From assembly GCA_017404545.1 (NCBI GenBank), contig JAFRCC010000006.1:8-64007 (forward strand): a DNA stretch of 64,000 bases, written 5' to 3'. Positions 1-59,113 of this stretch are shown here, piece after piece (positions within the stretch are counted from its first letter, which is position 1; every line of letters begins with the position of its first letter). Made by a program: the position numbers and the translations under genes. Under the pieces are notes generated by a model. It was not told where the DNA came from and made no database searches. It saw only the letters and a list, made by a program, of their open reading frames with translations. This stretch comes from Clostridia bacterium. Its GTDB lineage: Bacteria; Bacillota; Clostridia; TANB77; CAG-508.

Positions 1-18
1 AACAACGAATCATTCAGA

Positions 19-222
19 ATGGATCAAATAAATGTCCTAAATAAAAAGGAAACCGTAAAATTCATGGGAAATTACAGAGTTTATGACAGGAAAAATTACA
101 ACTCCATTTCAAGAGAAATCAATACTTTTCTAAAAGAATACGGTGACGTTGACATAAAATCTAAAAAAATCAGAGATAGCGGCATGAAATTTACAGCAGT
201 AAGCTTTAATTTTGAGCTATGA
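19..222 (+). CDS. hypothetical small protein
   Basis: 67-aa ORF at the window edge with no recognisable motif; context unclear. Confidence 0.3.
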   Translation: MDQINVLNKKETVKFMGNYRVYDRKNYNSISREINTFLKEYGDVDIKSKKIRDSGMKFTAVSFNFEL

Positions 223-404
223 AAAGTTTCATTATATACATATAATTCAAAATTTAACAATACCCACCATATTTAAGTATTAGAAAATAATCTCAAATAC
301 AAATAACATACAACTAAAACATAAATGATATAAATTCTTAATTTTAACAATAAATGACGGATATTACCCATATTAATAAATTAAATGATGAAATAAATAA
401 AATA

Positions 405-465
405 AAGCATTATTAATATGAAAAATAAAAGATTAAAGAAATTAATTTTTAATAACTTTTAGTAA
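405..465. repeat. about 58-bp direct repeat, copy A (second copy at 2943-3000, roughly 88% identical)
   Basis: Both copies read ATTATTAATATGAAAAAT(A/C)AAAGATTAAA...TTTTAA(A)TAACTTTTAGT when aligned by eye. Confidence 0.6.
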
Positions 466-667
466 ATTTAATCGAAATATTTATATACTAACAAAAGGGA
501 AATCAACAAAAAATTGTATAGTTACCATTTTATCTGTATTTAAGTGATTAAATAGTATAGTTTGGAAGTAACTATGTTTTTAAAATCTTATTTACAAACA
601 GTGAATAATCAAATTTTTGAATAGTTACCAAATTCCCAAAGAAAATTAAAATAAATTTTTTCACAAA

Positions 668-803
668 ACATTAATCATCAACCGTAATCATCAACCAACT
701 TGATTTTTTTATTTTTAATTAAAATTGTTTAAATCATAAAATAAGTAATTTAAAGAGTTTTTAAAAATTAATCATCAACCAAAAAATATGTTAATCATCA
801 ACC
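668..803. repeat. about 135-bp iteron block upstream of fic with 4 copies of TTAATCATCAACC (671-683, 685-696, 768-780, 791-803)
   Basis: Nearly identical block repeated at 1864-1998 immediately after the fic stop codon. Confidence 0.7.
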
Positions 804-843
804 ACATATAGTATAGTAATTAAGAAAAATAAAAGTTGATACT

Positions 844-1863
844 ATGTTTGAACCTAAATTTACATATACTGATAAAATTGTAAATTACATTGCAGAAATC
901 GCTTCAGCTAAAGAAGTTATCAACAATGCTAAAATAATCCCATTATACGATACCAAATTAAAACAGGACGCTCTTATTAGATCTTCACATTACTCAACAT
1001 CAATTGAAGGAAATCCTTTAAATTTAGACGAAGTAGAAACATTAATCAAAAACAATCAGAAACCAACTACAAAAGCAGAACTGGAAGTATTAAATTATTT
1101 CAATGTATTAAATCATTTAGACCAATATTCAGATAAAACTATTACCCAAAACACAATTTTATCCGTGCATAAAGATCTGACTAAAGATTTATTAAGAAAT
1201 CCAGAATATGAAGGTAAATTTAGGGATACTCGAGTATTTATCGGCAATCTGCATGCTCAAAAAATAAATTACGTGCCACCAGATGCTTATAAAGTGCCTT
1301 ATTTGGTAGAGGAATTATTAGACTGGTTGAACAATTCAACAGATGAAATGTATCCCGTCATTATCGCAGGAATTCTTCATTATGAATTAGTACGTATCCA
1401 CCCATTTGTTGATGGAAATGGGCGTACCAGCAGACTTATGGCAACATTAATTCTATCAGTTCACAAATTTAATATCAATAACTACTTCACTTTAGATGAA
1501 TATTATAATCAGGACAGGCAGGCTTATGTTGATGCCCTACACAGTGCTGATAAAAACCATGACTTGACTAATTGGCTGGAATATTTCTGTGGAGGAGTAT
1601 TATACTCAATTAATAAAGTTAAATCAGAAGTATTGAAATTAGGTGAAATCACATCAAAATATGATAAAACAATTCAATTAACTCCAAATGAAATTTCTGT
1701 ATTAACACTTCTTGAAGAAAAAGGACATATCCAAAACAAAGATATTCAAGAGATGTTAAAAATTACTCCCCAAGCCAGCTATAAAATTATTAGAAAACTA
1801 AAAAATAATGAATTAATTGAAAGTAGAGGAAAAGGTAGAAATACAGAATATATTTTGAAATAA
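844..1863 (+). CDS. fic: Fic/Doc family protein with C-terminal winged-helix domain
   Basis: Canonical Fic motif HPFVDGNGRTSRL. C-terminal region resembles a wHTH (LTPNEISVLTLLEEKGHIQNKDIQEMLKIT...). Confidence 0.85.
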   Translation: MFEPKFTYTDKIVNYIAEIASAKEVINNAKIIPLYDTKLKQDALIRSSHYSTSIEGNPLNLDEVETLIKNNQKPTTKAELEVLNYFNVLNHLDQYSDKTITQNTILSVHKDLTKDLLRNPEYEGKFRDTRVFIGNLHAQKINYVPPDAYKVPYLVEELLDWLNNSTDEMYPVIIAGILHYELVRIHPFVDGNGRTSRLMATLILSVHKFNINNYFTLDEYYNQDRQAYVDALHSADKNHDLTNWLEYFCGGVLYSINKVKSEVLKLGEITSKYDKTIQLTPNEISVLTLLEEKGHIQNKDIQEMLKITPQASYKIIRKLKNNELIESRGKGRNTEYILK

Positions 1864-1998
1864 AACATTAATCATCAACCTTAATCATCAACCATCATGA
1901 ATTTTTTATTTTTAATTAAAATGATTTAATTAATGAAATAAGTAATTTAATGAATTTTAAAAAATTAATCATCAACCAAAAAATATCCTAATCACCAA
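1864..1998. repeat. second copy of the iteron block (TTAATCATCAACC at 1868-1880, 1881-1893, 1965-1977, degenerate copy 1987-1998)
   Basis: Direct repeat of the 668-803 block including the AT-rich internal spacer. Confidence 0.7.
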
Positions 1999-2092
1999 CT
2001 ACAAATATCTTAAATCGAATGCTATGAAGAATATTCAAAACATTTTTATTAAGAAAAACATAATATAATTCTGAAGTGAATGGGGGAAAAAT

Positions 2093-2395
2093 ATGGATTC
2101 TTATTATAAGAGTAAAAAATTAATAATTTATTATTTTATTTCATATATTGCATGTTTTTTCCTTTTTCTAACTTTGTATATTATTTATCAGAATAATATC
2201 TTAATTTTAATCCAGTTAATTGTTTATGCGGGAATTATGAAGATATTTAGTATTAAATTTAGTGACTTAGATTGGAAATTTGAATGCATTAAAAAAGAAT
2301 ATAATGACCTATTTTTTCATGTTACACAAATAATGCCTTTTTTCATGATTTTCTTATGTTACATATCTGTAAAATTACTTAATTATCTCCCATAA
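2093..2395 (+). CDS. small hydrophobic membrane protein
   Basis: ORF with several predicted TM helices and an RBS-like GGGGGAAAAATATG upstream. Confidence 0.4.
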   Translation: MDSYYKSKKLIIYYFISYIACFFLFLTLYIIYQNNILILIQLIVYAGIMKIFSIKFSDLDWKFECIKKEYNDLFFHVTQIMPFFMIFLCYISVKLLNYLP

Positions 2396-2418
2396 TAACA
2401 TAACATTAAATAAATCGA

Positions 2419-2754
2419 ATGTCAATATTCAAAACTAAAAGGAGTGAGATTATGGGATTTTTAGAAAATCGAAGAAAAATTTTTATAACAACAATTTTAC
2501 TTCAAATCTTCACATATCTAATTACATTAGCATTAACACTGACATTAGACAATATTCTTTATTTTGGTTGTAGTTTCCTAATTTATTGCATAATTGGCAG
2601 AATTATGCTTAACCAATTAAATAACTTATATTACAATGAAAAACATGAAGATTATACTGGAGAGTATGATTTTAAATTGGATTTACTTTTTCCATTTGAC
2701 ATTATAATGATTTTAATAAATATAGCTACACTTAAAGTTTTAGGAGTAATTTAA
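2419..2754 (+). CDS. small membrane protein
   Basis: ORF preceded by AAGGAGTGAG; hydrophobic segments. Confidence 0.45.
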   Translation: MSIFKTKRSEIMGFLENRRKIFITTILLQIFTYLITLALTLTLDNILYFGCSFLIYCIIGRIMLNQLNNLYYNEKHEDYTGEYDFKLDLLFPFDIIMILINIATLKVLGVI

Positions 2755-2942
2755 CATTGACGACCACCATTAACTATTGGAAATCTACTTTTGGAAACCA
2801 TTACCTATGTTAAAAAATAATATACTTACCATCCTAAACCAAAAATTAAAAAAATATGCAAATTTGATATTCAATAATTTTAACAATCAGATTATAACTA
2901 TTGCCAATATCAAGAAAATAACAACTGAATTTCATAAAATAA

Positions 2943-3000
2943 TCAATTATTAATATGAAAAATCAAAGATTAAAAGAATTTCTTTTTAAATAACTTTTAG
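2943..3000. repeat. about 58-bp direct repeat, copy B, 180 bp upstream of the integrase gene (candidate att-type sequence)
   Basis: See copy A at 405-465. Confidence 0.6.
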
Positions 3001-3177
3001 TTATAAAAATAGAAAACTTTAAATAGTAACAAAAAGTAACTAATACATATTTTTTAAAATATCTTAAACTTTTGGTGATTCAATAATTTGAAAAATCGGA
3101 TTACTTACCAAATGCTCTCTCTCAAATTATAATATATTTCATTAATATATTATACTTATTGTCAATTAGGTGATAAT

Positions 3178-4290
3178 ATGGATAACGAGCTAGTAAGTGA
3201 AGTGAATATGGTAAAAAATCATTCCGAAGCCACTAAAATTGTTTATGAAAGAGCGGTTAAAAAATATACTGATTTTTGGTCAATGTCTTTGGAAGAACTG
3301 TTAGAAGAGGCGGAAAATGAAGAAGATAAAGGCATAAAATGGAAAAAAAGAAAATTAAAAAGGAGATTGATTCAATATCGACAACATTTACTTGAAAATT
3401 TCTCTTTAAATACAGCGCACATCTATTTCAATCCCATAACAGTTATTTACAGATATTATGAAATAGAAATAATCGATTTACCTAAAATTAACGAAAAAAG
3501 TTTAAAAAAACCAGAACCTATCCAATTCAAAGATTTACCTGATAAAGAAATCATAAGACAAGCTATAAATATTGCAACTCCTACAATGAAAGCAATAATA
3601 TATTTTATGGCGTCTAGCGGTTGTGCTAGAACTGAAACCTTGAATTTAACTATCGGAGATTATATTGGAGCCCTATCAGAATATACAAACAAAACTAACA
3701 TATACGACATAATAAATGAATTAAACGAAAATAATAATATTATTCCAACATTTAGTATTTTAAGACAAAAAACGGGAAAATATTACACTACCTATTGTAG
3801 TCCTGAAGCAGTAAAGGCTATAAATTTATATTTGCTCGATAGAACTGACTATTTAACAGATTATAAACCTTTATTCAGAATAAATTCAATTTATTTTAAT
3901 GCCAAATTTATAGAAATAAATAATAAACTAGGATTAGGAAAAGTAGGCTCTTATAATCGATTTAGAAGCCATATGTTACGTAAGTTTCACGCCTCCGCAC
4001 TATATAACGACGGTATGAGCTTAGATAAAGTCAATGACTTGCAGGGAAAAGCTAAAAACAAAACCGACCAAGCTTATTTTATGACTAATCCCGAAGATTT
4101 AAAACACGAATATATCAAACATCTTCCGGCTGTAACTATAAATCAAGATGTTGAAAAGCTATCTATCAAATCTCCGGAATTTATTCATATGGAAAATGAG
4201 AATAAAGAGTTAAAATCAGATTTAGACGAACTTAAAAGCAAAATTAAAAATATTGAAAATTTCGTTAAAAATTCCGGAGATGTCTTGTAG
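3178..4290 (+). CDS. int: tyrosine recombinase / phage integrase
   Basis: ARTETL region (first Arg). C-terminal HMLRKFHAS...LQGKA...AYF gives the H-x-x-R...H...Y catalytic pattern. Sits at the element boundary. Confidence 0.8.
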   Translation: MDNELVSEVNMVKNHSEATKIVYERAVKKYTDFWSMSLEELLEEAENEEDKGIKWKKRKLKRRLIQYRQHLLENFSLNTAHIYFNPITVIYRYYEIEIIDLPKINEKSLKKPEPIQFKDLPDKEIIRQAINIATPTMKAIIYFMASSGCARTETLNLTIGDYIGALSEYTNKTNIYDIINELNENNNIIPTFSILRQKTGKYYTTYCSPEAVKAINLYLLDRTDYLTDYKPLFRINSIYFNAKFIEINNKLGLGKVGSYNRFRSHMLRKFHASALYNDGMSLDKVNDLQGKAKNKTDQAYFMTNPEDLKHEYIKHLPAVTINQDVEKLSIKSPEFIHMENENKELKSDLDELKSKIKNIENFVKNSGDVL

Positions 4291-4438: not shown

Positions 4439-5728
4439 ATGAGTAATAAGAAATCACTAATGTTAATAATATTATCGATTTTTATGATTAGTGTTGTTAT
4501 AGGAGCGGTTTCTGCAAACTCTTCATTTGAAGAAAATTATTCTATAACTGAAACCGATAATACCGTTGCTCCATTGTCCGATATGAACTATTTGACTGAA
4601 TATAGTTCTTATTCAGACGAATCAGATTATAGTTCCGACAATGTTGAAACTACTGTTGATGATGGTACTTCAGACAGCAGTTCTGATGATGATAATGAGA
4701 ATATTGATGAAGAAACTCCTGAATATGACGGAGAATTCATTGTTGAAAATATAACTCAAAAATATGACGGATGGGGGTCTGACATATCCGTCTGGTTACA
4801 AGACAATGATGAAAATCCGCTTATTTTAGGAGATGGAGTTGTAACTCTTCATTGGAGTGATGGGACAATATCAAAACAATATGATAATGATTGGTATAAT
4901 CTCGAAATAATTGCTGATGAAATAAATTACGGCGTTGTTGATTATTCCGTATATGATTACTGGTTGTATGATGATGACGAATACGAGTGGGAAGGATATT
5001 ATTCAATTTTTAACAAGCCGGTAGGAACTTATACTGTAACGGCTGTTTGCAATGATGATGTTTACAATATTAAACCTGCAACATTTACAGTTAAAATTAA
5101 TAAAGGAACAGTTAAATTAACTCCCAAAGCTTATCATTGTGCTAAAGGAGATTATGCTACTTTAAAATGTAACGTCGTCGATTCTTACGGCCAATTTGTC
5201 GATGAAGGTACAGTAACTTTCAAAATTGATGGAAAAGAATACAAAGTAAAAGTATCCCGTGGAGTTGCTACTAAAAAAATAAAATTGTCAAAAGCTAAGA
5301 CTTATAAATATACAGCTACATTCAACGGAGACAATTATGTTTCAAAATCAGGGTCTAGTAGTATATACGTTTATAAAATCACTAAAAAAGCTAGAACTTT
5401 CAAAATTGGAAAATATAAAGCTGTAGTTCCATTAGCCAAATATAAAAAATTGATTAATGCTAAAAATACTAATAAACGTATTAGTTTTCATAACATCTAT
5501 ACTGGTAAAAAAATCACTCAAAAGGTTAAAGTAAACGGAAAATGGAAAACTATGAGAAACGTAAAAGTTTACTTTAATATTGCTTATGGTGGTAAAACTG
5601 GAGGGCAAGATTGCAATCCTAATAAATATTGCATTTATCTAGGAACTAAATATCAAAATCCCGGTTATGATGATTTTAAACCTTGGGTAGACGGGTATAA
5701 AACTAAAACATTACTTACTGATTTTTAA
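4439..5728 (+). CDS. secreted adhesin-like protein with Ig-like domain and Lys/Tyr-rich C-terminus
   Basis: N-terminal signal/TM helix, acidic D/S-rich region, Big-like segment (TVTAVCNDD...KVKVSRGVATKKIKL). Paralogous to 55374-56384. Confidence 0.6.
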   Translation: MSNKKSLMLIILSIFMISVVIGAVSANSSFEENYSITETDNTVAPLSDMNYLTEYSSYSDESDYSSDNVETTVDDGTSDSSSDDDNENIDEETPEYDGEFIVENITQKYDGWGSDISVWLQDNDENPLILGDGVVTLHWSDGTISKQYDNDWYNLEIIADEINYGVVDYSVYDYWLYDDDEYEWEGYYSIFNKPVGTYTVTAVCNDDVYNIKPATFTVKINKGTVKLTPKAYHCAKGDYATLKCNVVDSYGQFVDEGTVTFKIDGKEYKVKVSRGVATKKIKLSKAKTYKYTATFNGDNYVSKSGSSSIYVYKITKKARTFKIGKYKAVVPLAKYKKLINAKNTNKRISFHNIYTGKKITQKVKVNGKWKTMRNVKVYFNIAYGGKTGGQDCNPNKYCIYLGTKYQNPGYDDFKPWVDGYKTKTLLTDF

Positions 5729-8456: not shown

Positions 8457-9017
8457 ATGGTTAAAGCTGAATTAATGGAAAACACTCCAGTAACTCATGA
8501 AACTGGATTAGTGAATGTAGATAACGTTCCTGATGTAGATACTGCATTAGAACAATGGAACGCTTATCAAGCACTTTGTAAAGGTCTTTTAAATGAAACC
8601 GATTATCAAGACATCGTAGTTAAAGAAAAAGACGCTGACGGAAATTACGTCAAAGTAACTAGGAAATTCAAAAAGAAATCCGCTTGGCAAAAATTGTCTA
8701 GAGCTTTTAATGTTGATACTCACATCGTAGACCGTGAACTTGAAAGAACCAAAATGGGTAGAGTCAGAGAAGCTTATTATTGTGTTCGCGCAACTCTCCC
8801 CAACGGTAGAAGTGTAGAATCAGACGCTTTATGCTCTAGAAGTGAAAGAGGCAAAGACAAAGTCTCCGACCACACTATTATGAGTACTGCTAAAACCCGT
8901 GCTACTAATCGTGCTATTGCTGAATTAATCGGAGCGGGCGAAGTTTCTGCTGAAGAAATGGGAGCTGAAAAAAGACTCGTTGAAAGTCAATCTAAATTTC
9001 TAAAAGAGGGTGAATAA
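8457..9017 (+). CDS. putative single-strand annealing protein (Erf/Rad52-like)
   Basis: C-terminal STAKTRATNRAIAELIGAG resembles the Rad52/Erf hallmark (A.T.A.KRA...G.G). Lies next to the replication genes. Confidence 0.4.
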   Translation: MVKAELMENTPVTHETGLVNVDNVPDVDTALEQWNAYQALCKGLLNETDYQDIVVKEKDADGNYVKVTRKFKKKSAWQKLSRAFNVDTHIVDRELERTKMGRVREAYYCVRATLPNGRSVESDALCSRSERGKDKVSDHTIMSTAKTRATNRAIAELIGAGEVSAEEMGAEKRLVESQSKFLKEGE

Positions 9018-9056
9018 ATATATATTCCCTTCTAATTTTTTTATGAGCTGATAAAT

Positions 9057-9434
9057 ATGATTGAGGAAATTACCAAAGCTGAAGAAAATACTACACCCAA
9101 AATAACCTATCCAGCGTTATTTTACATGGGTTTGAAAGAATTAATACAGACAAAATCTGTTGCATTATTCGAACTAAGGAAACTTGAAAATGATTTGAAC
9201 GACGCTGAAAGAAAGCTATCTCACAAAGAATCTAAGCTCATCTTAACAACTGATTTCAAAGAACTAGGATTAACCAATGAAAAAATGAGGAAATCCTACA
9301 TCTATGACGAGTTATATGATGATAAATGTGATATTGCTGTTATGAAAGGCGATGTTGAAGAAAAAAGAGACACTATTGAAATAATCAACCACTTAATTAG
9401 ACTAAGTGAAATTAAATTGCAAGGAGCGTTATAA
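9057..9434 (+). CDS. hypothetical protein
   Basis: ATG embedded in GAGCTGATAAATATG. Confidence 0.5.
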   Translation: MIEEITKAEENTTPKITYPALFYMGLKELIQTKSVALFELRKLENDLNDAERKLSHKESKLILTTDFKELGLTNEKMRKSYIYDELYDDKCDIAVMKGDVEEKRDTIEIINHLIRLSEIKLQGAL

Positions 9435-9435
9435 A

Positions 9436-9936
9436 ATGAGTTTTAATGACAAACAAAGTATTTTTACTAGCACTGAATTAGATTATGAAGAAATTGTAGA
9501 CATTCCGGACGGATACGAAAAAGCTGAATTGAAAGATTTTGAAGATGGAACTTTAATCACCGGCAGACCTGAAATGTCCTCTGTAACTTCCTACACCTTC
9601 GATGATGATGGTGAGGAAAAAACTGTTAATAGGTTCAAATTATTCATTTTCAAAGATGCAGAACAATTATACGTCGAAATTAATGTAAATCTTAAAAATG
9701 ATGGTGATATTCACAAGAATATACGTAAAGGAAGTGTTTTATTTGACTTCTTAACTAGTATTCTTGAGTTAGAAAATGCCGGGTCAGTCGGAAGATCAAA
9801 TATCATCAGAAACGCCAACTTAGCTGAATATCGTGAGTTCGTAAACAGATTAAGTGAAATGACTATCGAAGTTAAAGAAAAAACTGGAACTTATGTATTC
9901 TACAGTTTTGTAATTAGAGATGTACAAATTGAATAA
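9436..9936 (+). CDS. hypothetical protein (start at ATG 9436 behind AAGGAG, not 9406)
   Basis: ORF. Confidence 0.45.
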   Translation: MSFNDKQSIFTSTELDYEEIVDIPDGYEKAELKDFEDGTLITGRPEMSSVTSYTFDDDGEEKTVNRFKLFIFKDAEQLYVEINVNLKNDGDIHKNIRKGSVLFDFLTSILELENAGSVGRSNIIRNANLAEYREFVNRLSEMTIEVKEKTGTYVFYSFVIRDVQIE

Positions 9937-9956
9937 ATGAACTATTGGAGTAGAAA

Positions 9957-11936
9957 ATGGCTTATAATCCAAAAGGACTGTTAAAAAAGTTCATCGAAGA
10001 TAATTATTCAGATGAAATTGAAGAATGCAAGTCATTACACCGACAGTCCAAAGTTAGTATTGATTTTGTAAAATTGAATCAATACCTCTTAGATGAAAGC
10101 GGTAAAGATTTTTTTCATTGGCGGATGTATTCATTCATTCCCGCTATTGAAGAATTTTACAATACTAACTTAACTCCAAAAGAACATATCAGTTTTAAAT
10201 TCATTAATGTACCTGAAACAGTTGAATTGCATAACTTAGACGCTACTAACAACAAAGAATGGATTTCTTGTAAAGCGATGGTTAAAAACATCACAGATAT
10301 TCGAGTAGACTTGAAACAAGCCGTTTATGAATGTCAAGAATGTCTTAAATTAACCGTCGTTAATGTGGCTGATAGTAATAATATTTTAATTCCGACTGTT
10401 TGTGAAAAATGTCAAGGAAAAAGGTTGAAACTTCTGAAAGATAGTAGCAATTACAGAGATTATCGACTGGTTAAGCTTGAAGAACCTTTAGAACTGCGAA
10501 AGGGAGGCAGTACAAGAGAATTAAAAGGCTATATGCAGGATTATCTTGCGAGCCCTTATCATAATATCAAAGCGGGAGATGTTGTCGATGTTACTGGAGA
10601 ATTTAGGGTTGAACCTCGTAAAGTACGGGGAAAATCAGACGGCTTTGAATTTCTAATCGATATTCATAATATAACTCCCGTTGATGATGCTTTTGAAGAT
10701 TACCGTTTGACTGAATCTGATAAAGAGATGATAATTGAGTTATCTAAAAGGGACGATATTTATGATTTGTTAGTTAATACTCTTGCTCCTGAAATCTTCG
10801 GTCATAAAACTGTCAAAGAAGGCTTAATTTTGCAGTTATTTGAAGGAAGCAGACCGGTCGATGATGTTTTCAAGAATAATAGTATGGAGAGATGGACTTC
10901 TCATATCCTTTTGATAGGTGACCCGGGAATTGGAAAATCTCAATTGGTAACTGCTGTTAATAAAAGAGCTCCTAAAATCATCAGTATTGCAGGAACTAAT
11001 ACAAGCCAATCCGGACTTACAACAAGCGCCGTAAAAGACGAACTAACGGGGACTTGGACGATGGAAGCCGGCGGTGTAATCCTTGCAGATACTGGTTTAT
11101 TGTGTATTGACGAGTTCGACAAATTAACTCCTTCAGCTCAAAAAAGTCTTAATGAACCGATGGAGCAATTATCAGTATCATCTGCTAAAGCCGGTTTGGT
11201 TCAAACTATGACTGCTAGAACCAGTATATTGGCAGTAGCCAATCCTAAGTATTCTAAATTCATGGATTCAAAACCTATGAAAGAACAATTGGATATTGCC
11301 GATTCTACGCTATCTAGGTTTGATTTAATATTTGTTCTAAGGGACAATGTTAATGAAACTAAGGATAGAAATTTGGCTAAAACTCTATTGACTAAAAATT
11401 CTATTGATAATGATGTAGAAACTCTATCTGACGATTGTTTTAAAAAATATATTACTTATATGAAGGCTAATTGCTTTCCAGTTTTGACTGACGAAGTAAT
11501 TGATATTTTATCGGAGTTCTATGTAGAGGTAAGACAACAAGCTAGCAAAAGTTACGATGGCAAACCGATTACTGCAAGGGACTTGAAATCTTTAGAGCGT
11601 TTAACAATTGCCCGTGCTAAATGCGAGGGCAGAACTACAACGAAAGTTGAAGATGCTAAAGAAGCTATACGGATTTATAGTGAAAGTTTATACAGCTTAG
11701 GTTTGGACTTAACAACAGCGGGCGAGCTTGTAGGTGTTGCCTCTAACAAAGAAATGGATATAATTTTGGAAGTTGATAAAATGGTGAAAGCTAAAGCTGA
11801 ATATGAAGGACTTCCTTTGTCTAGTGAAAGTATACAGAATTTAAAACACGAATGCGGAGTATTATGTCAAGGTACTAATCTGGACTATAATGTCGTTGTG
11901 GAAGATGCAATAACGAAATTCGAAAAAAGACTATAA
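9957..11936 (+). CDS. mcm: MCM-family replicative helicase
   Basis: C4 zinc finger (CQEC...CEKC), Walker A ILLIGDPGIGKSQL, Walker B LLCIDEFDKL, arginine finger SRFDLIFVL. Confidence 0.9.
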   Translation: MAYNPKGLLKKFIEDNYSDEIEECKSLHRQSKVSIDFVKLNQYLLDESGKDFFHWRMYSFIPAIEEFYNTNLTPKEHISFKFINVPETVELHNLDATNNKEWISCKAMVKNITDIRVDLKQAVYECQECLKLTVVNVADSNNILIPTVCEKCQGKRLKLLKDSSNYRDYRLVKLEEPLELRKGGSTRELKGYMQDYLASPYHNIKAGDVVDVTGEFRVEPRKVRGKSDGFEFLIDIHNITPVDDAFEDYRLTESDKEMIIELSKRDDIYDLLVNTLAPEIFGHKTVKEGLILQLFEGSRPVDDVFKNNSMERWTSHILLIGDPGIGKSQLVTAVNKRAPKIISIAGTNTSQSGLTTSAVKDELTGTWTMEAGGVILADTGLLCIDEFDKLTPSAQKSLNEPMEQLSVSSAKAGLVQTMTARTSILAVANPKYSKFMDSKPMKEQLDIADSTLSRFDLIFVLRDNVNETKDRNLAKTLLTKNSIDNDVETLSDDCFKKYITYMKANCFPVLTDEVIDILSEFYVEVRQQASKSYDGKPITARDLKSLERLTIARAKCEGRTTTKVEDAKEAIRIYSESLYSLGLDLTTAGELVGVASNKEMDIILEVDKMVKAKAEYEGLPLSSESIQNLKHECGVLCQGTNLDYNVVVEDAITKFEKRL

Positions 11937-11951
11937 GGAGTACTATAATTA

Positions 11952-11990
11952 TTACACGTGTACACGGGTTACACGGGTACCCGTGTAATA
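11952..11990. promoter_or_regulatory. GC-rich palindromic element: ACACGTGT (11954-11961) plus a 20-bp perfect palindrome TTACACGGGTACCCGTGTAA (11969-11988)
   Basis: Read directly. Lies between the mcm stop and the RHH gene start. GC-rich in an AT-rich genome. Confidence 0.6.
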
Positions 11991-12038
11991 TTTACGGACG
12001 GGTGATGCCCTTTTAGAAAAAAAGTATTATTAATCGAG

Positions 12039-12506
12039 GTGGTAAGTATTACTAAAAAGAATTTTACTATAACTGTCGATGAAGATTTGGTAAAAAAGGC
12101 TAAAAAGCAAATACCTAATATAAGTAAATTTGTTGAAGATTGCTTAAAATGTTTCTTAGGTATGGGAAACAAGCAAGTTTCAACAAGTAGACAATACGAA
12201 CTGATACAAACTATAAGTAAATGTCAATTAGAACTGCATTTAATGAATGAGAAAAGTAACATTGAAAAATCTAGAAAAGAAGCTGAAACTGAAGAAATTA
12301 ATCTTGTTTGGAGGAAATTATACGCCGAGTATAGAGATACAAGAAAAATTGACTCTGCTAAGCTAAAAGAGGCTGAAAAAATATTAGGAGTTTCTAGTGA
12401 GGAGCTAACTGATATTATTGAAGTCTTATTTGTCTATCACAACGAAACTGAAATAGACATTACAGATTGGTTCGAGGTTTACAATGAATACGGGTACGGT
12501 GATTGA
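12039..12506 (+). CDS. ribbon-helix-helix (CopG-like) DNA-binding protein with a C-terminal acidic domain; GTG start
   Basis: N-terminus KKNFTITVDEDLVKKAKK...ISKFVEDCLKCFL fits the RHH beta-alpha-alpha pattern. RBS CGAGGTG. Confidence 0.5.
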   Translation: MVSITKKNFTITVDEDLVKKAKKQIPNISKFVEDCLKCFLGMGNKQVSTSRQYELIQTISKCQLELHLMNEKSNIEKSRKEAETEEINLVWRKLYAEYRDTRKIDSAKLKEAEKILGVSSEELTDIIEVLFVYHNETEIDITDWFEVYNEYGYGD

Positions 12507-12584
12507 TAAAATAAGAAACGTTACAACCTAAATAGTCGAATATTATTCAAATTAATCAAAATATCAAAAAACGAGCTGATAAAT

Positions 12585-13118
12585 ATGATTAGTATATATG
12601 AAGATTTTGTAAAGGATTATAATAATCCTAATATCACTGGAGAAGACATTAGGAGATTGAATCACCTAAACGCTCATCAGTATAGCAAATTAAGAGCTAA
12701 AGCATTAGATAATGGTGATATTTCAACTCCTAGACATATGAACACCACCGGCGCTAAATTCTACACTAAAACTAAACGTGGAGATTTTATTGTAAAGAAA
12801 CAATACGGCAACAAGACTGTTTTAGTCGGCAGATTTCCTGATCAAGCTACAGCAGAGATGATAGTATCTTTGTGTAAAAGAGTAAATTGGGATTTAAAAC
12901 AAATATCTAGCGTCATCGACGAAAATAAAGTCAAACCTAAAAACTACACCTACGTCAATGGATATTATATTGTAGAAAAACGAATAAACGGGAAAAGGAT
13001 TGTTTTCTATCGTGGGAAACACGAGGCTGAAGCAATCCATCTAGTAAATGAGCTAAGAAAAAACGATTGGGACAAATCGAAGGTGAATTTAATACTTGAT
13101 GAAATGAGTTTGAACTAA
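12585..13118 (+). CDS. tandem AP2-like DNA-binding domain protein
   Basis: Two repeats resembling AP2/integrase-type DNA-binding domains (GDFIVKKQYGNKTVLVGRFPDQATAEMIV; NGYYIVEKRINGKRIVFYRGKHEAEAIHLV). Start carries the GAGCTGATAAATATG motif. Confidence 0.4.
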   Translation: MISIYEDFVKDYNNPNITGEDIRRLNHLNAHQYSKLRAKALDNGDISTPRHMNTTGAKFYTKTKRGDFIVKKQYGNKTVLVGRFPDQATAEMIVSLCKRVNWDLKQISSVIDENKVKPKNYTYVNGYYIVEKRINGKRIVFYRGKHEAEAIHLVNELRKNDWDKSKVNLILDEMSLN

Positions 13119-13304
13119 TCTATATATCGTGGTGGAACTTTACTAGGAAAAACCAGTTGAATAAATCTCTCAAAGGTCTGATAAATCTAACAGCAAGAGG
13201 TGTAAGCCTCTGTTGTTAAATTTAATCAATCCTTTGATAATTCAATTTTGAAATTTTTTTGAAAATCTAGACGAAAACAACCAAACCATTAGGAGAATGA
13301 TAAA

Positions 13305-16242: not shown

Positions 16243-16537
16243 GATTACTATTTTTTTTCAATGAATTTTACTTTAGAACTATTTTTAATTTTCCGATTAC
16301 ATAACAAATGCTCTCTCGGAAAAAGCGTATATTTTATATTTGTACTAATATACAACTAGGAGTCACATATTTCAGTTCGACTTTTTTTTATTTGTGAAAA
16401 GTTGGTTTTATTGGTGATGGTTGAGAACCTGAAAATGTGACTTCTTACTCTATTTTTAAATTTAGAACGTGCAGATTTTGTTTTATGTTAATAAAAAATC
16501 AAAATTATCCTTTTAAGAAAAATCCGAATAGGATATA

Positions 16538-55373: not shown

Positions 55374-56384
55374 ATGAAATATAATAGATTGGTTGTGTTG
55401 GGACTTGTTTTAATTGTTCTATTTTTAAGTATTGGAGTAACAACTGCAAATGAAAATACTACTTTAGAAGGTGTAGAATCTAATGTAGAGGATACTTTAA
55501 TGAGTTATGATGAAAATTTAGGGGAATATGGGGATTATGGGGAAAACTATAATGCTAGAATCATAGCTAACAACGTAACAGTAGAATATGATGATGAATA
55601 TGAACTATCAATCTATATTGTTGATAATAACAATAATCCAATAGAAATGGCGGAACCTTATTTTGAAGATTATTTAAATTCATGGTACGATTCTAACGGA
55701 TATTATTATTTTTATCCAAGTAATTATGATGTAGGAACTCATAATGTTACATTTACTCTTGACGACGGTCTTTATAAAGCAGAACCCGTTTCAATTAATA
55801 TGAAAATTGTTAAATCTGTATTTTATGGCGAAATTACTTGTAAATCTTATTGGGGAACTACTAAAAGCACTTTAACAATGAAAGCAACCGTTTATAATCC
55901 TTATGGAAGTTTTTATGAAGAGGGTTATGTTACTTTTAAAGTTAATGGAAAATCTTATAAAGTTAAAACTAAAGGTGGCGTAGCAACTAAAACAATAAAA
56001 ATTAAAAAATCCGGAACTTATACCTATACTGCAAAATTTATTAATAACAATTACAAATCATCAGGAGTAACTGGTAAAGCCAAATTATATGTTAAAAAAT
56101 ATAAAAAATATTATACATTTACAGCAAAAGATTATGATAAACATAAAACTACTGGTAAATTGATATATAAATTACCTTATAAGTATTATCTGAAATTATT
56201 AACTGCAAAAAGTAAAGGAAAAACTTGTTATTTGAATTTCAAAAGTAAAGTCAAAGTTTATGGAAATAAATGGTATAAAACCAGATGTGGATTTGATTTA
56301 AATAAAAAAGGTAAATTAACATTTACTTATGAGGTAGATACTTATTCCCATCCTGTTTTTGCATATAAAGTATATAATTTGTAG
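55374..56384 (+). CDS. secreted adhesin-like protein with Ig-like domain and Lys/Tyr-rich C-terminus (paralog of 4439-5728)
   Basis: Signal/TM helix. Big-like segment GEITCKSYWGTTKSTLTMKATVYNPYGSFYEEGYVTFKVNGKSYKVKTKGGVATKTIKIKK aligns with the 4439-5728 protein. Confidence 0.55.
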   Translation: MKYNRLVVLGLVLIVLFLSIGVTTANENTTLEGVESNVEDTLMSYDENLGEYGDYGENYNARIIANNVTVEYDDEYELSIYIVDNNNNPIEMAEPYFEDYLNSWYDSNGYYYFYPSNYDVGTHNVTFTLDDGLYKAEPVSINMKIVKSVFYGEITCKSYWGTTKSTLTMKATVYNPYGSFYEEGYVTFKVNGKSYKVKTKGGVATKTIKIKKSGTYTYTAKFINNNYKSSGVTGKAKLYVKKYKKYYTFTAKDYDKHKTTGKLIYKLPYKYYLKLLTAKSKGKTCYLNFKSKVKVYGNKWYKTRCGFDLNKKGKLTFTYEVDTYSHPVFAYKVYNL

Positions 56385-56884: not shown

Positions 56885-56908
56885 TTGTGGAGATATGATT
56901 CTCCACAA
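56885..56908. promoter_or_regulatory. perfect inverted repeat TTGTGGAGA-TATGAT-TCTCCACAA upstream of hsp20
   Basis: Read directly. A related GTGGA...TCCAC hairpin sits at the hsp20 stop. Confidence 0.4.
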
Positions 56909-57229
56909 TTTTATGATCACTATTTTGATTTTTCGTGTAGCTCGTTGATGGTTCTTGGTGTTATAAAAAATGGTTTAATGAACTTTTATTTTATTTGCAT
57001 TTTACCTTTTTGTGTCTGTTTATTTTCCTCCGAGATTTTTATTATATTGTTTATTATTTATTTAAAATTGTTGAATAATTATTTAATATTTCTACATTGA
57101 ACGATATTGAATAAATTTAAAAACAATTAAATACAAAGTATTAACAATAGAGAAAGTATAAGTATAGGATATTTTGAAATATATCTAATACATACTTATA
57201 GAAAATTCATCTATAGGAGTGTGAAAAAT

Positions 57230-57823
57230 ATGGTAGATTCTGAAACCATTGAAGCAAAAATTTCTGATAAAAAAGAAGAATTTGAAGAAAAAGTAGATGA
57301 AAAAGTCGAAGAAGGAAAAGAAAAATTCGAAGAGAAAAAAGAAAAATACGAAGAAAGAAAAGAAAAAGGAAAAAATATTGCTGATAATGTAATTAACGAT
57401 TTATACAGAACCATTGATGAGGTCAAAGACAACCTCAAAAACATGCAAAAATCTGCTGATGAAAGATATGCCAACTACAAAAAATCAACTGTCCAAACAT
57501 TAGACGTTGATCTTGTTGAAACCAAAGATATCTACTACATCAAAGCAGCAGTACCTGGTGCTGAAAAAGAAGATGTGTTGATTGAAGCTGGTGACAACGA
57601 CATTACTATTGAAACCACTTTCAAACCATACATTGAAGAATTCGCAGAAGATGAAGAAGCTGAATTAATCGCTTCTAGCATCAAAGCCGGAAGATGTGTT
57701 AAAACAATCAGATTCGAAAACAGCCTTGATTTAGAAAACATCACTGCAAAATTCGCAAACGGAATCGTTACTATAACCATTCCAAAACTAATCATACCAA
57801 AACATAAAATCAATGTGGAATAG
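57230..57823 (+). CDS. hsp20: small heat-shock protein Hsp20/alpha-crystallin family (ATG 57230 preferred over GTG 57221)
   Basis: K/E-rich N-terminus then alpha-crystallin domain (DVDLVETKDIYYIKAAVPGAEKEDVLIEA...GIVTITIPK). RBS AGGAGTG. Confidence 0.8.
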   Translation: MVDSETIEAKISDKKEEFEEKVDEKVEEGKEKFEEKKEKYEERKEKGKNIADNVINDLYRTIDEVKDNLKNMQKSADERYANYKKSTVQTLDVDLVETKDIYYIKAAVPGAEKEDVLIEAGDNDITIETTFKPYIEEFAEDEEAELIASSIKAGRCVKTIRFENSLDLENITAKFANGIVTITIPKLIIPKHKINVE

Positions 57824-57850
57824 TCTCCACATTTTATCCCTTTTTTTAAA
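57813..57850 (+). terminator. hairpin ATGTGGA-ATAGTC-TCCACAT plus T-tract at the hsp20 stop
   Basis: Read directly. Confidence 0.45.
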
Positions 57851-58102
57851 AATTAATATCTTACTTAATGATTTAAGAAGTTTTAATTTCTTTTTCAATC
57901 ATTACAATTTAATCATCCATGAAAAATTAATTAGACCATTTTCTTTGTAAATCATTATCATTATACTTGATTTTTTCCTGGCATTCACTATATTTTGATA
58001 CTCCTTCCTCAAACCATTTTAAACACATGTCTTTATTTTTGTTATAATGTTCGCAGTCCAAATGGATGTTTTCTTCAGCCATATTAAAACACTTCCTTAT
58101 TT

Positions 58103-59113
58103 TTAATATCTTACTTTACCAATGTGTCTTGTTGCACCAGGATCTTCACCATTGAAGTGAGCCAAGTAATATACAAACCATTCAAGTGGAATTACAAAGA
58201 TGAATGGAGACAATAACTTATCAACATCAGCATAATCCTTTAAGTCATAGATTATTGATTTGGCTTCAAGGTTTTTACAGAAATCAATAGCTTTTTGTGT
58301 GATTTCATCAGATTTTAAATCAGATGTTAAAAAGATTACCGGAACATCCTTTTCTGCCCTTTCAATCAGACCATGTCTGAATTCTGCTGAATATTCAGGA
58401 CAAGCATGTTTGATTGCTCCTTCCATAAGCATGGTCATGGCCAATTTGTATGAAAGACCAAAGTTAGGTCCACTTCCCAAACAGTAGAAAATGTCTTCAT
58501 CTTTAAACTCTTCGGCCAACACTTTATTTTCATCTTCAGTTGCAACCAAAAGTTTTTCAAGCATTTTAGGCATTTCAGCTAATTGTGCCAGCAGCTCTGA
58601 TTTTTCCTCATAATCTGATGCCTTAAATAAGATTTGATATAAACAGGCAAGCTGGGTAATGTATGTTTTAGTACCTAAAATTGCAGTTTCTCTTTCACAT
58701 CTTGTAACAATTGGAGTTTTTGCTTCTTTAATCATGGAACTGTCAGGCTCGTTTGAAATGGATACTGTGTGTATTCCAAATTCATTGCATCTTCTTAAAG
58801 ATGCAAGAGTATCAGCAGTTTCACCTGACTGAGAAGTAAAAATAGCTATGGAGTTTTCATCATTTACCAATTTCTTGTTGTAGTAAAATTCATAACCAGT
58901 ATAGACTTCTATGTTCATGTTAGTACTGGACATCCTAATTGCATCCCTAACACTGTAACAAGTTGAAATAGAACTACCGCAACCAATTAAATAGATTTTA
59001 TCCACTTGTGAAATTAAATCAGACACGTCATCCATCTTTGGCATTTCACTTTCAAATGTTTTTTTAAGTGAATCAGGTTGTTCCATCATTTCGTCATACA
59101 TTTTATATTTCAT
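58103..59113 (-). CDS. SIS-domain sugar-phosphate isomerase/aminotransferase-like protein (two SIS domains)
   Basis: [10 protein letters not shown]...[11 protein letters not shown] and [19 protein letters not shown] are SIS-fold phosphosugar-binding motifs. Confidence 0.6.

Follow-up and report, generated by a model that had tools for sequence, protein, structure and literature searches.

Are direct repeats that bracket a few genes next to a viral integrase the attachment sites of integrated elements, or do they have another origin? The question is raised by the left end of a 64,000-nucleotide stretch of contig JAFRCC010000006.1 (assembly GCA_017404545.1), hereafter called the window. Here, a gene for a Fic protein (fic) and two genes for small membrane proteins are enclosed by two similar repeats, copy A and copy B, and copy B is followed shortly by the tyrosine integrase gene (int) of a provirus. 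The original prediction regarded the repeats, of about 58 bp, as copies of the provirus attachment site, and the 2.5-kb segment between them as a second, small integrated element or its remnant. A different explanation emerged from the analysis and is considered likely. On this view, the repeats are copies of the promoter of the host heat-shock gene hsp20 and enclose an integrase-less cassette at a recombination hot spot. The 54-kb provirus has a 10-bp site of its own beside copy B. The repeat, its identity as hsp20 upstream sequence, the empty site, the core, the tandem arrays elsewhere, and the lack of a detected integrase in the cassettes examined were all established in the analysis.

The window has a G+C content of 24-37%. 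At the nucleotide level, its integrase gene is about 69% identical to that of Methanobrevibacter smithii tailed virus 1 (MSTV1), and all related loci obtained from genome collections belong to Methanobrevibacter metagenome-assembled genomes (MAGs). Judged from these sequences, the window is therefore a segment of a Methanobrevibacter chromosome carrying a large tailed provirus. All features described below are given on its forward strand.

Identity of the repeats and ends of the provirus

The direct repeats noticed by eye at 405-465 and 2943-3000 are real, with 49 identical positions over 58-61 nt, and blastn and a cross-species profile agree on them. Comparison of the two copies by blastn-short aligned 409-463 with 2946-3001 (89.3% over 56 nt, E 1e-10). 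The match was extended by blastn to 362-496 and 2899-3034 (136 nt, 77%, E 1.5e-24), and the longest alignment covers 339-496 and 2875-3034 (about 160 nt, 76%); these limits are used here for copy A, the distal unit, and copy B, the unit proximal to hsp20. An nhmmer profile made from 22 copies, all of them from other species, matched the 64-kb window at 342-496 and 2876-3034 only (E about 2e-24 each), the next best match having an E-value of 0.12. The prediction was also right in placing the repeat shortly upstream of int (3178-4290), since copy B ends 144-178 nt before 3178. Likewise, the failure to see a third copy near the right end of the provirus (about 57.2 kb) was upheld by blastn, blastn-short and the profile search.

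The position of the repeat in other genomes reveals what it is. In a scan for Hsp20 that included one genome per species, homologues of the repeat were located immediately 5' of hsp20 at 18 of 20 Methanobrevibacter species loci. A metagenome scan with a degenerate promoter pattern yielded 21 matches, 14 of them in the same position. In an alignment of 26 copies, 24 of which come from other loci, a palindrome, a TATA box, and the distance to the hsp20 start codon are all conserved. About 100 nt of moderately conserved sequence precede the palindrome, T(A/T)AC-N5-GT(A/T)A, which is followed by a box resembling a B recognition element and TATA box (BRE/TATA; GAAAACTTTATATA), about 14 nt, the core described below, a leader of about 35 nt, and the hsp20 start, GGAGTGTGAAAAATATG. 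Copy A carries the palindrome as TAAC-TTTTA-GTAA (453-465) and the TATA box as TTTATATA (480-487); in copy B they read TAAC-TTTTA-GTTA (2991-3003) and TTTAAATA (3018-3025). The palindrome matches CTAAC-N5-GTTAG, the operator of the heat-shock regulator HSR1 from Archaeoglobus fulgidus (PMC9133787). The repeat is the upstream region of hsp20, and its conserved place 5' of this gene, together with the HSR1-like palindrome, suggests that it functions as a promoter with a probable heat-shock operator.

In the window, the host hsp20 gene (57230-57823; Pfam PF00011) is found on the far side of the provirus. In provirus-free strains it lies directly downstream of copy B, preceded only by the core and a 35-nt leader. 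Similar hairpins formed by GTGGAGA/TCTCCAC, each with T-runs behind it, occur at the hsp20 stop codon (57811-57835) and near the right end of the provirus (56886-56913), and both may be terminators of common origin.

The ends of the provirus were located by comparison with contigs of the same species, some carrying the provirus and some lacking it, which were retrieved by an exact-protein look-up with Fic and Hsp20. This comparison with provirus-free strains and the repeat search for the right attachment site had both been proposed together with the original prediction. In the empty-site contig L003, positions 9158-12209 correspond to window positions 1-3052 at 99.97%, and positions 12194-13200 match window positions 57182-58188. 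The same empty junction is present in L017, L019, and L020. The host site (attB) comprises copy B, one core, and the leader. The junction alignments overlap by 16 nt, and within them the left, right, and empty sites (attL, attR, and attB) share exactly 10 bp, CTAATACATA, with identity stopping on both sides. This sequence has two copies only in the window, at 3040-3049 (attL) and 57185-57194 (attR). The provirus between the cores extends from 3050 to 57184 and has a size of 54,145 bp. The attL core begins 5 nt beyond the right end of copy B, which itself belongs to the host side.

The view that the 58-mer is an attachment site shared with the provirus was thus not borne out, because the ends are defined by the exact pair of CTAATACATA instead. 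Nothing similar to the 58-mer is present at the provirus right end, and copy A lacks the core, reading ATCAACAAAA at the equivalent position and GGGAAATCAACAAAA where GTAACTAATACATA follows copy B. Both copies and the whole fic segment are retained in the provirus-free strains L003/L011, L017, L019, and L020; in L003/L011 the two copies (9496-9653 and 12032-12191 of L003) are accompanied by a single CTAATACATA. The outcome that had been named as evidence against the prediction was therefore seen in part: the provirus is indeed delimited by another pair of repeats, but the 58-mer, instead of being absent from the empty sites, is found in them.

The site of the free virus (attP), reconstructed by joining the two provirus ends, has the organization of a conventional tyrosine-recombinase core site, with inverted arms and an identical overlap, and CTAATACATA is classified as such. 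Its imperfect inverted arms of 25 nt, with 21 of 25 positions matching, surround the 7-bp sequence CTAATAC. The right arm, on the P' side, occupies 3047-3071, and the left arm, on the P side, occupies 57160-57184 at the right end of the provirus. Positions 3034-3071 are identical to the reverse complement of 57160-57197 at 30 of 38 positions, a match that ranks second in the whole window when one of three scoring schemes is applied. Within attP, arms of 8 nt match at seven positions (background frequency 0.001); the dyad of attB is weaker, with six of eight matching (background frequency 0.009). The attP junction of a free virus was absent from IMG/VR.

Two further features were observed at the provirus ends. 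A 49-nt direct repeat of about 78% identity (2846-2894 and 3053-3103) straddles copy B and attL, one copy being host or cassette sequence and the other lying in the P' arm of the provirus. No other sequence in the window matches the attL region better under any of the three scoring schemes, but the cross-species profile gives this repeat no support. Secreted proteins with Ig-like (Big) domains are encoded just inside both ends, at 4439-5728, right after int, and at 55374-56384, in the last large gene before attR.

The fic cassette and the gap between NOG1 and hsp20

The content of the segment was described correctly in the original prediction. Fic was recognized through Pfam, and the two proteins of about 100 amino acids contain three hydrophobic segments each. 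The fic gene (844-1863) encodes a Fic/Doc domain (PF02661, E 3.4e-22) followed by a C-terminal MarR-like winged helix (PF01047, E 8.7e-07), and the catalytic motif HxFx(D/E)GNGRxxR is present in its translation as HPFVDGNGRTSR. Membrane protein 1 (2093-2395) has 100 amino acids, as does membrane protein 2 (2452-2754), which would have 111 if translation started at 2419. Their hydrophobic layout is the same, and their sequence similarity appears weak.

Two copies of a 171-nt direct repeat, 85% identical, were found by a repeat search to bracket fic. The first, D1a (640-810), lies upstream of fic and contains four TAATCATCAACC motifs arranged in two pairs around an AT-rich spacer. The second, D1b (1837-2007), runs across the 3' end of fic and precedes both membrane-protein genes. 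Together, D1a and D1b hold seven exact TAATCATCAACC motifs, against 0.55 expected. Homologues of this module occur in the islands of L016, L024, L025, L027, L039, L054, L064, and L066. In its arrangement D1a looks like a promoter-operator module; the D1 module may be bound by the winged helix of Fic, or it may consist of iterons.

Between copy A and D1a lies a conserved element of about 125 nt (seg509; 505-634), which follows most distal promoter copies and is 80-91% identical to elements in other loci. It contains two internal units ending in TTG(T/A)ATAGTTACC, and an internal repeat joins 486-527 with 589-630. The heptamer TAGTTAC/GTAACTA, which has 11 occurrences in 64 kb, is found in this element at 519, 568, and 622, in alternating orientation, and again at 3036, on the left edge of the attL core. 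A role of the element as a structured RNA was rejected, since RNAalifold gave -5.2 kcal/mol with compensatory changes in none of 27 pairs, and no Rfam family matched at E <= 1. The possibility that it is a remnant of the provirus P' arm or int promoter was also discarded as unsupported: 102 of 500 shuffles score as high, and 26-185 of the 3642 window chunks score higher, so that the likeness is not above background. On viral contigs, the promoter unit has no matches, and the element has two 18-mer matches, both in unrelated contigs and consistent with chance.

Comparison of loci places the segment within a much wider pattern. The gene for the NOG1 GTPase and hsp20 are separated by as little as about 80-110 nt in L023 and L040, and by over 9 kb at the other extreme. 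Tandem promoter copies with cargo between them were found at five loci, with three copies in L025 and L063 and two each in L027, L032, and L039. The resemblance of distal to proximal copies breaks off immediately left of the core position, and the distal copies then run into the 125-nt element, as observed in the window, L025, L039, L054, L057, L060, and, twice, L063. Equally similar elements (80-91% identity) are present in L064 and L016, and the cargo behind the element differs among loci. This cargo includes Fic, MNT/HepT pairs, Cas1-Cas2 without an array, and STAND-like and AAA ATPases with winged helices, as well as a flippase, an O-antigen polymerase, an alpha/beta hydrolase, and a CAAX protease. 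No homologue of the window integrase was detected in the loci with tandem copies, and a Pfam scan of their larger open reading frames gave no integrase match. In L063, Cas1-Cas2 (8796-10068) occupies a tandem cassette beside an MNT/HepT pair, and Tandem Repeats Finder detected no array of clustered regularly interspaced short palindromic repeats (CRISPR) in the 7 kb of sequence examined.

Independent breakpoints of homology are grouped around the provirus crossover site, at distances of up to about 15 nt. In the metagenome contigs L064 and L066, a promoter copy is followed by unrelated sequence, and the break in L064 comes right after a core-like TAATACAT. At least three alleles exist upstream of the core in the species cluster of the window, namely the fic cassette, an ATPase cassette in L016, and the allele of L018. 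Remnants of fic and of the gene for membrane protein 2 survive in the ATPase cassette. Tandem arrays, breakpoints, alleles, and varied cargo together argue that the spacer between the hsp20 TATA box and the leader is a recombination hot spot across Methanobrevibacter. They equally argue that the fic segment is an integrase-less accessory cassette, bounded by promoter copies and belonging to a family of such units.

The L016 allele also presents an unusual stretch of identity. From the exact core onwards, about 560 nt comprising the leader and most of hsp20 are 100% identical between L016 (5956-6520) and L003 (12197-12760). The two contigs are 74-92% identical upstream of the core and diverge again after hsp20. 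The tract could be the result of recombination or transduction, or of a chimeric assembly. A connection of the cassettes with the 2.9-kb circular DNA of M. smithii was considered and rejected, as this DNA belongs to a different locus and its authors saw no flanking direct repeats (PMC12134362).

Arrival of the cassettes and competing explanations

According to the explanation considered likely, copies A and B would be paralogous hsp20 promoter regions, each made up of about 100 nt of upstream sequence, an HSR1-like palindrome, and a BRE/TATA box. Copy B would drive hsp20 in provirus-free strains. Copy A and the 125-nt element would form the left boundary of a 2.5-kb cassette in the hypervariable gap between NOG1 and hsp20, with a putative promoter-operator repeat, fic, a second such repeat, and the two membrane-protein genes in succession. 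Cassettes with toxin-antitoxin, defence-like, and surface-polysaccharide cargo would pile up in tandem, each bounded by a promoter copy. They may come as DNA that carries its own promoter copy, and two routes can be envisaged. In the first, a circle would integrate site-specifically through an attP formed by the promoter copy beside the 125-nt element; in the second, a single homologous crossover would take place inside the homology of about 160 nt. Both routes would yield the same order of host flank, promoter, 125-nt element, cargo, promoter, and hsp20. The provirus would represent a separate event, in which the integrase recombined its palindromic attP with the 10-bp core that follows the hsp20 TATA box and precedes the leader.

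The tight grouping of breakpoints, together with the excess of GTAACTA/TAGTTAC in the 125-nt element and at the core edge, tends to favour site-specific arrival. Homologous exchange or gene conversion is an equally viable route, given that the distal junctions have no shared core, that two promoter sequence types form a mosaic among positions and species, and that L021 has the promoter described next.

Several points weigh against the promoter-copy explanation as a whole. Neither an excised circle nor a precise cassette-free allele (the o97 gene, which encodes the 97-aa protein of the left flank, a single copy, and hsp20) nor an integrase-bearing version of a cassette was found. Among the other loci, same-species pairs gave no precise presence/absence polymorphism beyond the cluster of the window itself. 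The promoter of L021, the closest cassette-free relative, is nearer to copy B than to copy A, which fits poorly with a proximal copy that is always borne by the element. The cargo behind the 125-nt element is often in the opposite orientation (L027, L032, L039, L063), so that the extra copies cannot be regarded as simple expression platforms. Promoter, operator, and transcription start are predicted features, and some junctions could be misassembled, because the sequences used for comparison are mostly metagenome contigs or MAGs.

A more far-reaching version can be offered only tentatively, and we regard it as rather unlikely. It supposes an undescribed Methanobrevibacter family of integrase-less cassettes with a left end of about 125 nt (505-634 in the window) and a right end of about 160 nt that provides a replacement heat-shock promoter. 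Such cassettes would insert site-specifically downstream of the hsp20 TATA box, ahead of the transcription start, and stack like an array, by means of a recombinase encoded elsewhere. Proviruses at the adjacent 10-bp core would place int behind the heat-shock promoter/operator and thereby couple excision to stress.

The idea of a second element retains part of its force. The fic segment could be an integrative element, or a remnant mobilisable in cis, that resides at the attachment site of the provirus with the 58-mer as att repeat and the integrase acting in trans, as in accretion-mobilisation of CIME-type elements (cis-mobilisable elements). What stands of this proposal is a separable accessory unit (0.5-3.0 kb), bounded by direct repeats immediately beside attL and int at a hypervariable locus, with tandem units in other species. 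Moreover, the homology between distal and proximal copies ends about 5-10 nt from the provirus core, and the heptamer that overlaps the left edge of this core is found three times in the 125-nt element. What does not stand is the dependence on the provirus site. Copy A lacks CTAATACATA, whose only copies start at 3040 and 57185, attR and the reconstructed attP are both free of the 58-mer, and the segment with both copies is intact in provirus-free strains. The likeness of the 125-nt element to the P' arm does not rise above background. Neither an integrase homologue nor an integrase Pfam match was found in the cassettes examined or in the other species.

The relatives of the integrase point in the same direction. 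The assignment of int (Pfam PF00589) is supported by 1095 homologues and by 69% nucleotide identity to the MSTV1 integrase gene. Integrases 68-73% identical to it are found at other chromosomal sites, each 115-150 nt from a divergently oriented host gene, and the three families examined adjoin an aminotransferase, a DUF308 gene, and CbiC. In none of the 20 species was an integrase homologue found at 10 kb or less from hsp20, and peptide patterns retrieved no integrase relatives from IMG/VR. As these relatives occupy unrelated sites, the integrase family has no tie to hsp20. Overall, a second element at the provirus attachment site is considered improbable.

An explanation without any mobile element also appears improbable. 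In this case, the hsp20 promoter/operator would have been copied by segmental duplication, bringing fic and its neighbours under heat-shock control. The palindrome and the TATA box are indeed the best-conserved part of the repeat, and copy A of the window points toward the 125-nt element, D1a, and fic. In other species, however, the cargo behind extra copies is diverse and often opposite in orientation, one conserved 125-nt element follows the copies irrespective of the cargo, arrays reach three copies, and alleles within one species differ sharply at the core. These features indicate recombination-driven turnover and not a single duplication. Finally, chance likeness in AT-rich intergenic DNA (about 25% G+C), a region of very low G+C where the repeat search returned many short spurious repeats, has practically no probability left, being refuted by the blastn E-value of the repeat and by the independent profile that picks exactly the two places.

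Consequences for lysogeny and comparison with known systems

With the provirus inserted, the palindrome and TATA box of hsp20 are no longer next to the gene, and int comes to lie 128 nt downstream of them. In the lysogen, the host heat-shock promoter may therefore read into int. Since hsp20 is cut off from its native promoter, the right end of the provirus would have to supply another one. A conserved motif, GATTACTTACCAAATGCTCTCTC, is located upstream of int (3099-3121) and followed by a TATA-like box; it is kept at this position in L043, L046, L049, and MSTV1, and motif and box are probably the promoter and operator of int itself. The motif, which can be written as GATTAC(T/A)TA(C/A)CAAATGCTCTCTC, has a second direct copy at 16295-16317, lying 13.2 kb into the provirus where the early gene block ends.

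In this analysis, a 54-kb Methanobrevibacter provirus was assigned its true ends and an attachment site that falls between the TATA box of a heat-shock gene and its leader, a position through which lysogeny probably rewires the expression of hsp20 and int. It also points to the gap between NOG1 and hsp20 as a genus-wide hot spot at which toxin-antitoxin, defence-like, and surface-polysaccharide genes would be exchanged as promoter-bounded units. These results are relevant for strain variation in rumen and gut methanogens, as well as for the delimitation of proviruses and islands in AT-rich genomes by repeat search alone.

A parallel is provided by the cis-mobilisable elements (CIMEs) next to integrative and conjugative elements (ICEs) in Streptococcus thermophilus, where integrase-less derivatives accumulate in tandem at one att site. 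Both systems have units without integrase, bounded by direct repeats and stacked beside an intact integrase-bearing element. In the window, the repeats differ from those of CIMEs in that they are not the att core of the neighbouring provirus, which copy A lacks, and the repeated unit is a functional-looking host promoter and not part of a tRNA gene. With respect to the features by which CIMEs are recognized, the fic segment has direct repeats, for which an origin from att sites is only a possibility, and the homology of these repeats stops near the provirus core without including it. The variation seen consists of an allele with alternative cargo (L016) and minimal loci in other species, while neither a precise empty allele in this species nor a circle was found.

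Tandem integration and loss of the integrase have been noted in archaea as well (PMC8371274). The same work describes elements with pTN3-like integrases in Thermococcales; their targets are tRNA genes, entered in the 5' half, and they supply a promoter to the targeted gene (PMC8371274). In these elements, as in the provirus of the window, insertion takes place between a host gene and its own promoter, so that the end of the element has to give transcription signals. The target in the window is instead the spacer between TATA box and leader of a protein-coding heat-shock gene. Its integrase gene stays in one piece, and the replacement promoter is putative.

Cassette arrays of integrons resemble the loci described here in their tandem small units with diverse cargo beside a promoter, and in the conserved sequence at each junction. 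They differ in having an integron integrase and attC-like folded sites, both absent from the system of the window. Units of the window type come with promoters of their own and hold several genes, which may point in either direction, and their junction repeat measures about 160 plus 125 nt. No description of such a promoter-bounded arrangement was found in the literature searched.

The putative operator is comparable to the HSR1/Phr type, with a TAAC-N5-GTTA palindrome upstream of hsp20 that is conserved across Methanobrevibacter. In the window this palindrome is located upstream of the TATA box, and the operator is a sequence-based prediction. The provirus itself is closest to the MSTV1-like tailed proviruses of Methanobrevibacter (PP537965.1; PMC11375127), with which it shares a related integrase (69% nucleotide identity), the placement of int at the left end beside attL, and the motif upstream of int. 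It differs from them in its integration site, in its size (54 kb, compared with 38.8 kb), and in its gene content, which includes an MCM helicase in place of Orc1/Cdc6.

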